Shown here piece by piece: positions 56,596 through 59,002 of a stretch of 64,000 bases of DNA (position 1 is its first letter; every line of letters starts with the position of its first letter). This stretch comes from Okamejei kenojei (Eukaryota). The stretch lies in assembly GCA_035221665.1 (NCBI GenBank), contig CM069166.1:7688001-7752000 (forward strand), in the 5' to 3' direction. The position numbers and the translations under genes are program-made. The notes beneath the pieces are model-generated. The model saw only the letters and a program-made list of their open reading frames with translations, did not search any database and was not told where the DNA came from.

Positions 56596-56714
56596 TTACG
56601 GATAACAGCAGTCCGTCCCATCATCACACAGTTTTTTTCCTTCATTATAGTCTGGTTCACAGGGGAGGTAACTGCAGGTTCCTTTTAGATATTTGCAGGT
56701 TATGGTGCTTGAAT
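56596..56714 (-). CDS. Beta-defensin-like peptide, mature-peptide exon
   Basis: Acceptor gggtttcag; phase 1; (D)SSTITCKYLKGTCSYLPCEPDYNEGKKLCDDGTDCCYP* with C-x6-C-x4-C-x10-C-x5-CC spacing. Confidence 0.88.
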
Positions 56715-58938
56715 CTGAAACCCAAGATCAATCATGCAGTTAATTTGGGAACCGTTCATTATCAGTGACGGAGAGTCAGACATACTTTTTATAACAAAAA
56801 AAACAAGAAAATGGTGGAAACATCAGCATCAAAAGGACACAAAGTGCTGGAGTAAGTCTGCGGGTCATGCATTATCTCTAGAGAACATGGATTGATGATG
56901 TTTCTGGTTGGGACCCTTCAGCTTGATTGCAGGGTGAGAGGAGAAAGCTGGTAAAGAGGAGAGGGAGGGCAAAGCATGGCAGGTAATAGATCGACACAGG
57001 CAAGGGTTTTTTTGGACAGGCAGATGGTTGGAACAAGAGCCTGAGATAAGAACAGTAGGTGTGAGACAAGAAACATCAGCATCTGTGGAAAGAGGGCAGC
57101 TGGTGTAGATTCACTGCATCACTGCAGGGTAGACCCGGGTTTGATTCTGACCTCATCGGCCATGTGTGGACTTTCCTCATTCTCATGTGATGGTTGGCGG
57201 TTCGTCTGGGCGCTCCAATTTCCTCTCACACCCCAAAAACATGTGATTTATAGGTTAATTGGGCCCCTGTAAATTGCCCCTGGTGTGTAGGGAGTGGGTG
57301 AGAAAGTGGGTTAACAGAACTAGTGAGAACGGGTGATTGTTGGTTATAGGATTTCCATGGTATATTGTTAAATTAAACTTAACTAAAAGGATCAGTTAGG
57401 TTTCAATTTCCAATCCCCTTCATCAGGACTGGGAAGTGAGAAAATGATTTAATTTTCAGTGAAGAACAAGTGGGAGAGGAGATGAGTTGAACAAAGAGAA
57501 TGTTCCTTCCTCCACATATGATGTTGGACCTGCTGATTGCTTCCAGCATGTTTCTGTTTTTAGATCAGATTTCTAACAAAGGACAGTCTGAAGAAACAGA
57601 TTTGTTGTATTAATTTTTGCCAACCCAACATATTGAGAGAATCACCATAAATGTGTTCTTAAAAATACTGTCTGAATGGTTGTTATTCATCTTCCATTAC
57701 AGGGAAAAATACCTTTCCAATTATGTTTTGTGAATATGTAGGCTCAATTGCGAGAGAATATGGGCTTCAGATTTATATCCGATTTAAAGAAAATGTCTTT
57801 GTCGATACAGTGATCTCTCGGCTTTATATTTGAATTGCCACAGCAATTTCTGGTGTGCGATTTCTGATCCACTGAATTCTGAATGTGGAAACCCGACGTC
57901 TGACAGCTGAGCTGTGGATATGCAAAGTCAGTTGTTGCTGTTCTCATTCAAGCCTCCCCTGCTCATGAACACTGTGGCACATCATTAAAGAAATACTTTC
58001 CTCTCATTCCTCACTCTCATAGAACATAGAGCAGTAAAGCGCAGGAACAGTCCCTTTTGCCCACGAACATGATGCCAAGAGAAACTAATCCCATCTGCCC
58101 GCACATGATCCATATCCCTCCATTTCCTGCGTACCAATGTGCCTGTCCAAAACCTTAAATGTACTATCATCCCCTTTAAACTTTGCCGCTCTCACTTCAA
58201 AGTTGTGCCCTCTAGTCTTTGACATTTATACCCTGATAAAATGTCAAACTGTCTACCCTGTTAATGATTCTCATAAATAAACTTATATCAGCTCTTCCCC
58301 TTAATCTCTGACGTTCCGGAGGTAACTGAGGTCCCTGAAGCAGAATAACACAACTCTAGGTTAGAGATGCAGCACTCTAAGACTCCAGTGCTGGCTCTTG
58401 GCCTATTTTATATCGTTGCCTGCCCCTGAACTCAATAACTATTCAAGTAATCAGAGAATCTATAAACAGACACAATGAACTGCAAATGCTGGAATACTGA
58501 GCAAAACACAAAGCGCTCAAACAACTCAGCAGATCAGACAGACATATATAGACGGACAAGTTTCAAATTAAATCCTCAGCTTCTTTCAAACCAGTACATT
58601 CAGCAGAGAATTGCTTGATTCAAAGCTACAGCATTTGCTGAGTTCACACTGATCATTTATCACCCATTCACACTTTATCGTCCCCTCCCCACATACTTGG
58701 GGCATTTTACAGAGGCCCAATGAACCTACAAACCTGCACATCATTGGGATGTGGGAGGAAACCGGAACACCCACAGGAAATCCACATTTGTCACAGGGAG
58801 AACATGCAAAGTTCATACAGGCAGCACCCGAGGTCAGGATAAAACCCATTGTGAGGCAGCAGGTCCACCAGCACGTTGCTCCTTTTTTTTTAAACAGACT
58901 ACATTAGTTGATAGAGAGACAGGAGGAGGAGCACTCAC

Positions 58939-59002
58939 CCACCAACTGCAAGTCTGGAGGCAGCAACAGGAGACCAAGGATCAGGATCAATGCTTTCATC
59001 AT
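58939..59002 (-). CDS. Beta-defensin-like peptide, signal-peptide exon
   Basis: CCCAACATG; MMKALILILGLLLLPPDLQLV plus G|gtgagt phase-1 donor, in frame with 56596-56714. Confidence 0.82.

Follow-up and report, generated by a model that had tools for sequence, protein, structure and literature searches.

A conserved acidic beta-defensin-fold subfamily in the skate Okamejei kenojei

Cartilaginous fish form the oldest living branch of the jawed vertebrates. Beta-defensins are stated to be present in all vertebrates (PMC12278569) and are therefore to be expected in a skate, and a two-exon ancestral vertebrate gene has been proposed, with later intron gain in teleosts and birds (PMC8231796). As far as the available portions of these papers go, acidic beta-defensins have already been described in flounder (PMC8698591, PMC8231796), where one also attracts leukocytes (PMC8698591), and in lizards (PMC12278569), and acidic enzyme inhibitors of defensin fold are known from sea anemones (PMC6835510). 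For cartilaginous fish, the antimicrobial molecules given in section 14 of a 2019 review (PMC6795676) are transferrin, squalamine and kenojeinin I alone, with no mention of beta-defensin, a shark skin proteome (PMC10707392) carries the term in its reference list only, and no beta-defensins of this group were found in literature titles and abstract openings, mostly from outside the subscription journals, where such reports would be likeliest. Here we describe a gene (copy A) in a 64,000-nucleotide stretch of the Okamejei kenojei genome (contig C36:7688001-7752000, hereafter the window) and its three paralogs (copies B, C and D). Copy A is a real gene, and the four copies together are a conserved acidic beta-defensin-fold subfamily that falls outside the Pfam model.

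Gene structure and predicted fold of copy A

A preliminary description, made from the letters alone, had spliced two short exons on the minus strand into a 60-residue precursor, and every element of that structure is present. The coding part of exon 1 (59002-58939, i.e., 21 codons and the first base of a split codon) runs into a GTGAGT donor, a phase-1 GT-AG intron of 2224 nucleotides (56715..58938) closes with a TTTCAG acceptor, and the coding part of exon 2 (56714-56596), which covers the last residues of the predicted signal peptide and then the mature peptide with its six cysteines, terminates in TAA (21 + 1 + 38 residues). Two AATAAA polyadenylation signals follow the stop on the same strand (56485-56480 and 56467-56462), also as described. 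Exon 1 is hydrophobic, with a seven-residue hydropathy peak of 3.4, and on this ground is predicted to be a signal peptide; by rule of thumb, its cleavage is predicted close to the exon junction, where residue -1 is small and residue -2 is Asp or Glu in all four copies. Copy A opens with two methionines and its paralogs with one, and the second ATG (59 residues) may be the common start of the family.

The cysteines of the exon-2 peptide are spaced 6-4-10-5-0, a glycine sits two residues ahead of Cys2, and only two residues follow the terminal CC, with no C-terminal tail. The peptide contains four Lys, no Arg, no His, four Asp and two Glu (net charge -2, isoelectric point 4.5). The phase-1 intron, the GxC-containing cysteine pattern and the acidity previously reported all hold. 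Stop-free matches to C-x6-C-x(3-4)-C-x(9-11)-C-x(5-6)-CC number one in the window and zero in 150 simulated windows with the window's own 4-mer composition; thus, the pattern lies beyond chance.

A predicted model of the copy A peptide shows a three-stranded antiparallel sheet (strands 12-14, 23-25 and 34-37; predicted local distance difference test score, pLDDT, 74), while a second structure model was poor. All 20 structural matches were of defensin fold, in line with the fold originally proposed; platypus and sea-anemone peptides were among them, and a helianthamide-type match tied with HBD4 and speaks to fold alone. From the spacing and the terminal CC, disulfides C1-C5, C2-C4 and C3-C6 are predicted. 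All four copies carry the six-cysteine motif C-X(6-7)-C-X(3-7)-C-X(8-14)-C-X(4-7)-CC (range from the available text of PMC12278569) and the beta-defensin gene plan of a signal peptide (judged by hydropathy) on exon 1 and a mature peptide on exon 2. In profile searches, advised in the preliminary description, copy A has no match in Pfam and none of the four copies reaches the PF00711 gathering cut-off of 21 bits (best paralog 15.7 bits, E 0.016); a profile of the other defensins of this genome, treated below, aligns with the acidic four (E 1.8e-4). No copy has the net-positive mature peptide of the classical cationic class, the plan of three coding exons and two introns reported for teleosts in the accessible part of PMC8231796, or, with six cysteines only, the eight-cysteine lizard ovodefensin motif (as given in the available text of PMC12278569). 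Since neither of the two protein collections searched holds a relative and Atlas holds no exact match, the subfamily appears to be unannotated as protein. We are highly confident that copy A encodes a secreted defensin-fold peptide.

None of the sequencing runs recorded as RNA contains the stretch of the gene. Two runs guessed to be RNA (X1 and X2, two samples of one related organism from one study) each yielded one contig over 56516-56715, with 15 differences and one gap relative to the window; both alignments stop at the acceptor, beyond which 295 and 202 unlike letters follow. The coding-part differences listed are all synonymous third positions (6/6), with three of the 15 differences not itemised. 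A DNA-like run from another organism (X3) has exon 2 and the intron end continuous. The departure of the contigs at 56715 fits the predicted junction because exon 1 ends in G, as AG does, which supports, indirectly, splicing at this acceptor in a related organism. The letters running on in X1 and X2 were not matched to exon 1, and the pairing of the two exons thus rests on the paralogs.

Paralogs, selection and the other beta-defensins of the genome

Five candidates from a protein search of the genome yielded four matches. Besides copy A, these are copies B and C, which are encoded by the plus strand shortly past the window (start codons at C36:7752008 and C36:7763555), and copy D, whose ATG is at 4177963 of contig C21. 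In all of them exon 1 is hydrophobic and 20-21 codons long, a GT-AG intron interrupts the frame in phase 1 (1760 nucleotides in B, 2611 in C and 558 in D), the cysteine spacing is 6-4-10-5-0 and AATAAA occurs downstream, and the position of stop codon and AATAAA inside exon 2 in all four leaves two coding exons. Exon-2 identity to copy A is 89, 61 and 50% across the other three; the six cysteines, Gly11, Pro17, Tyr-Asn-Glu 22-24, Asp-Asp-Gly 30-32 and Tyr37 are invariant, and all four peptides are acidic (net charge -2, -1, -1 and -4). A degenerate C-terminal-motif pattern matches just the sites of the four copies, and its reversed control gives one match.

Between copies A and C, 11 of 60 bases differ in exon 1 with zero residue changes, and 18 of 114 differ in exon 2, giving a ratio of nonsynonymous to synonymous substitution rates (dN/dS) of 0.046 over both exons (Fisher p 2.5e-12); their introns have just two short pieces in common. 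The ratio for B and C is 0.17, and in the remaining four pairs the silent sites have reached saturation (differences per synonymous site, pS, 0.75-1.05; per nonsynonymous site, pN, 0.21-0.41). By these comparisons the four acidic copies are old duplicates whose product has been conserved.

Copies A and B stand head to head with 5.0 kb between them, the start codon of B lying 8 bases past the window end, and the two may share upstream control DNA. Upstream of copy A, a non-coding block at 59343..59409 on the minus strand (67 nucleotides) is common to copies A and C (73% identity, E 1.6e-7) and is a possible regulatory element; a counterpart sought at B and D was not found. Nearer to the gene, an AT-rich GTCATTAA-like element (59162-59153, minus strand) has aligned counterparts ahead of copies B and C and lines up with a TATAAA box located upstream of D; it could be a common core promoter.

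The same genome holds other beta-defensins. Searching it with PF00711 gave 30 matches at E<=10; 15 were examined, seven of which have the full six-cysteine frame, and an eighth full exon adjoins one of the seven. Five of these eight are on C36 at 14.9-18.7 Mb (L015, L016, L017, L019 and L029), two on C42 (L035, 12.2 Mb) and one on C302 (L036). The acceptor phase is the same in all eight, scans of seven revealed a signal-type exon in phase 1 for four, seven of the eight reach the PF00711 cut-off, three show the 6-4-10-5 spacing, and net charges range from 0 to +8. The genome thus has at least 12 candidate defensin genes (these eight and the acidic four). dN/dS exceeds 1 in nine of 11 pairs of the other defensins, pairs that are not independent and of which two tested singly were not significant; the rest stand at 0.88 and 0.26, the latter for a pair two bases apart, and the peptides of the exons at 17.49 and 18.67 Mb on C36 differ at a single residue. 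Set against the purifying selection on the acidic four, these ratios suggest that one genome carries defensins changing in the manner of pathogen-facing peptides together with an acidic set held fixed.

Proposed function and competing explanations

We propose that the signal peptide on exon 1 would route the product to secretion, that cleavage near the exon junction would release a mature peptide of ~37 residues, and that three disulfides would, by analogy, brace the three-stranded sheet. The invariant Y-N-E and C-D-D-G, which stand where classical family members carry basic residues, could then form a fixed docking surface, most likely for an immune receptor of the host or for one of its plasma proteins, with the peptide acting as chemoattractant or modulator. 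That the conserved acidic face binds a conserved host protein rather than lysing microbial membranes is the reading we favour, by somewhat better than even chances: lacking Arg and negative in net charge, the peptide would be expected to bind anionic membranes poorly, the invariant residues are acidic, and purifying selection on them lends indirect support to the absence of membrane lysis. Weighing against it, the recombinant acidic beta-defensin of flounder inhibits bacteria, according to the available text of PMC8698591. This same result speaks for a direct antimicrobial action despite the charge, whether by way of a microbial target that is conserved, of metal ions bound to the peptide or of a charge that varies with pH, as does the innate-immunity neighbourhood of the three copies that adjoin a triple complement C3-like cluster, and the invariant DDG is a conceivable cation-binding site. 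However, the lack of Arg, the net charge of -2, the absence in copy A of any His for a pH switch, and a purifying selection unlike that on the other defensin exons of this genome leave such an action rather doubtful.

Egg cases are part of skate reproduction, and a peptide of the sperm coat, the oviducal gland or the egg case itself would be in keeping with beta-defensins that have fertility roles and with oviduct-expressed ovodefensins (as described in the accessible text of PMC12278569); lacking the eight-cysteine lizard ovodefensin motif and any C-terminal tail, copy A is unlikely to be of this kind. The toxin-like role earlier put forward fares worse. Platypus and sea-anemone peptides do occur among the fold matches, but a defensin fold of any kind gives such matches, skates to our knowledge lack the venom spine of stingrays, and venom peptides usually diversify fast whereas this one is conserved; we thus consider a venom function highly improbable. 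There is barely any room for a chance or dead reading frame, which the lack of protein relatives in the collections searched and of a Pfam match might suggest, given four intact copies, the dN/dS of 0.046, the synonymous differences listed for the relative and contigs that depart at the acceptor. Returning to the host-protein reading, we tentatively extend it, as a possibility short of even chances, to an old undescribed cartilaginous-fish beta-defensin branch that gave up an antibiotic role to become a conserved host-protein ligand or regulator, perhaps acting with the adjoining C3 genes, in which case the 12 genes of two-exon type would be the first repertoire of beta-defensins for the jawed vertebrates that branched off earliest, with the predicted ancestral two-exon plan kept.

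Genomic neighbourhood and comparison with known systems

The only flanking gene identified is a complement C3-like gene (9255..50505, minus strand, first coding exon 50505-50437) that starts on the same strand 6.1 kb past the stop of copy A. One of its exons (20709-20506) gave matches to complement C3, the highest to C3-like of Amblyraja radiata (86%), with 75-76% in other skates and 55-69% in sharks and other rays. The gene closes a tandem array of three C3-like genes on C36 (7.39, 7.54 and 7.71 Mb), beside which copies A, B and C lie; no C3-like exon was found in the vicinity of copy D, and the link between defensins and C3 is only positional. The cathepsin B propeptide family, sought because CTSB flanks the reptile and bird cluster along with XPO1 and XKR6, had zero matches anywhere, controls included. 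Within its exons the reading frame of the C3-like gene is broken twice, at about 38745 (in a stretch of A) and at about 26510, so that either this member of the tandem trio is a pseudogene or the assembly is in error; an N gap of 500 bases lies at 37050-37549. Upstream of its start codon (50505-50600, minus strand) are a TATA box at -55 and, at -88, an HNF1-like site with two mismatches to the consensus, an arrangement to be expected of a liver gene. Open frames at 29454-30332, split over two frames, resemble a Tc1/mariner transposase, that at 55033-55761 resembles the endonuclease end of a Penelope-like element, and many long interspersed nuclear element (LINE) fragments surround both. On C21 (~4.169 Mb; L013:8615-9406), a phage-integrase N-terminal SAM-like domain next to reverse-transcriptase fragments, 9 kb ahead of copy D, probably marks a retroelement of DIRS type.

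A repertoire of beta-defensins from a skate closes the gap left by the short list of antimicrobial molecules of cartilaginous fish and permits a test of the proposed two-exon ancestral gene, and the presence of conserved acidic and fast-changing cationic defensins in one genome allows a side-by-side test of the role of acidic defensins (cf. the accessible text of PMC12278569). These genes further illustrate, in practice, how coding sequence in two short exons can be absent from protein databases. We regard these results as useful for defensin evolution, a new mechanism not being established on present evidence.

Compared with the vertebrate beta-defensins (HBD4, hBD-2; PF00711), the acidic subfamily is net negative, with no Arg in copy A, lacks the Gly two residues before Cys4 in three of the four copies, and is set apart by YNE and CDDG motifs that are invariant within it, by purifying selection and by a C3 neighbourhood. 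Going by the available descriptions, it resembles the acidic beta-defensin of olive flounder, likewise a six-cysteine acidic mature peptide in fish (PMC8698591, PMC8231796), but the genes of teleosts are built of three exons and the flounder precursor includes a pro-region of 5-15 residues (PMC8231796), whereas the skate gene has two coding exons and no room for such a region; no link in sequence between the two emerged, none having been sought directly. The lizard AcBD29 (clade 38) is likewise described as acidic and strongly conserved across families, and belongs to the reptile cluster that has XPO1 and CTSB as its flanking genes (PMC12278569). Helianthamide and magnificamide, cnidarian alpha-amylase inhibitors of beta-defensin fold, show by analogy how an acidic defensin could bind a protein, with no family assignment intended.
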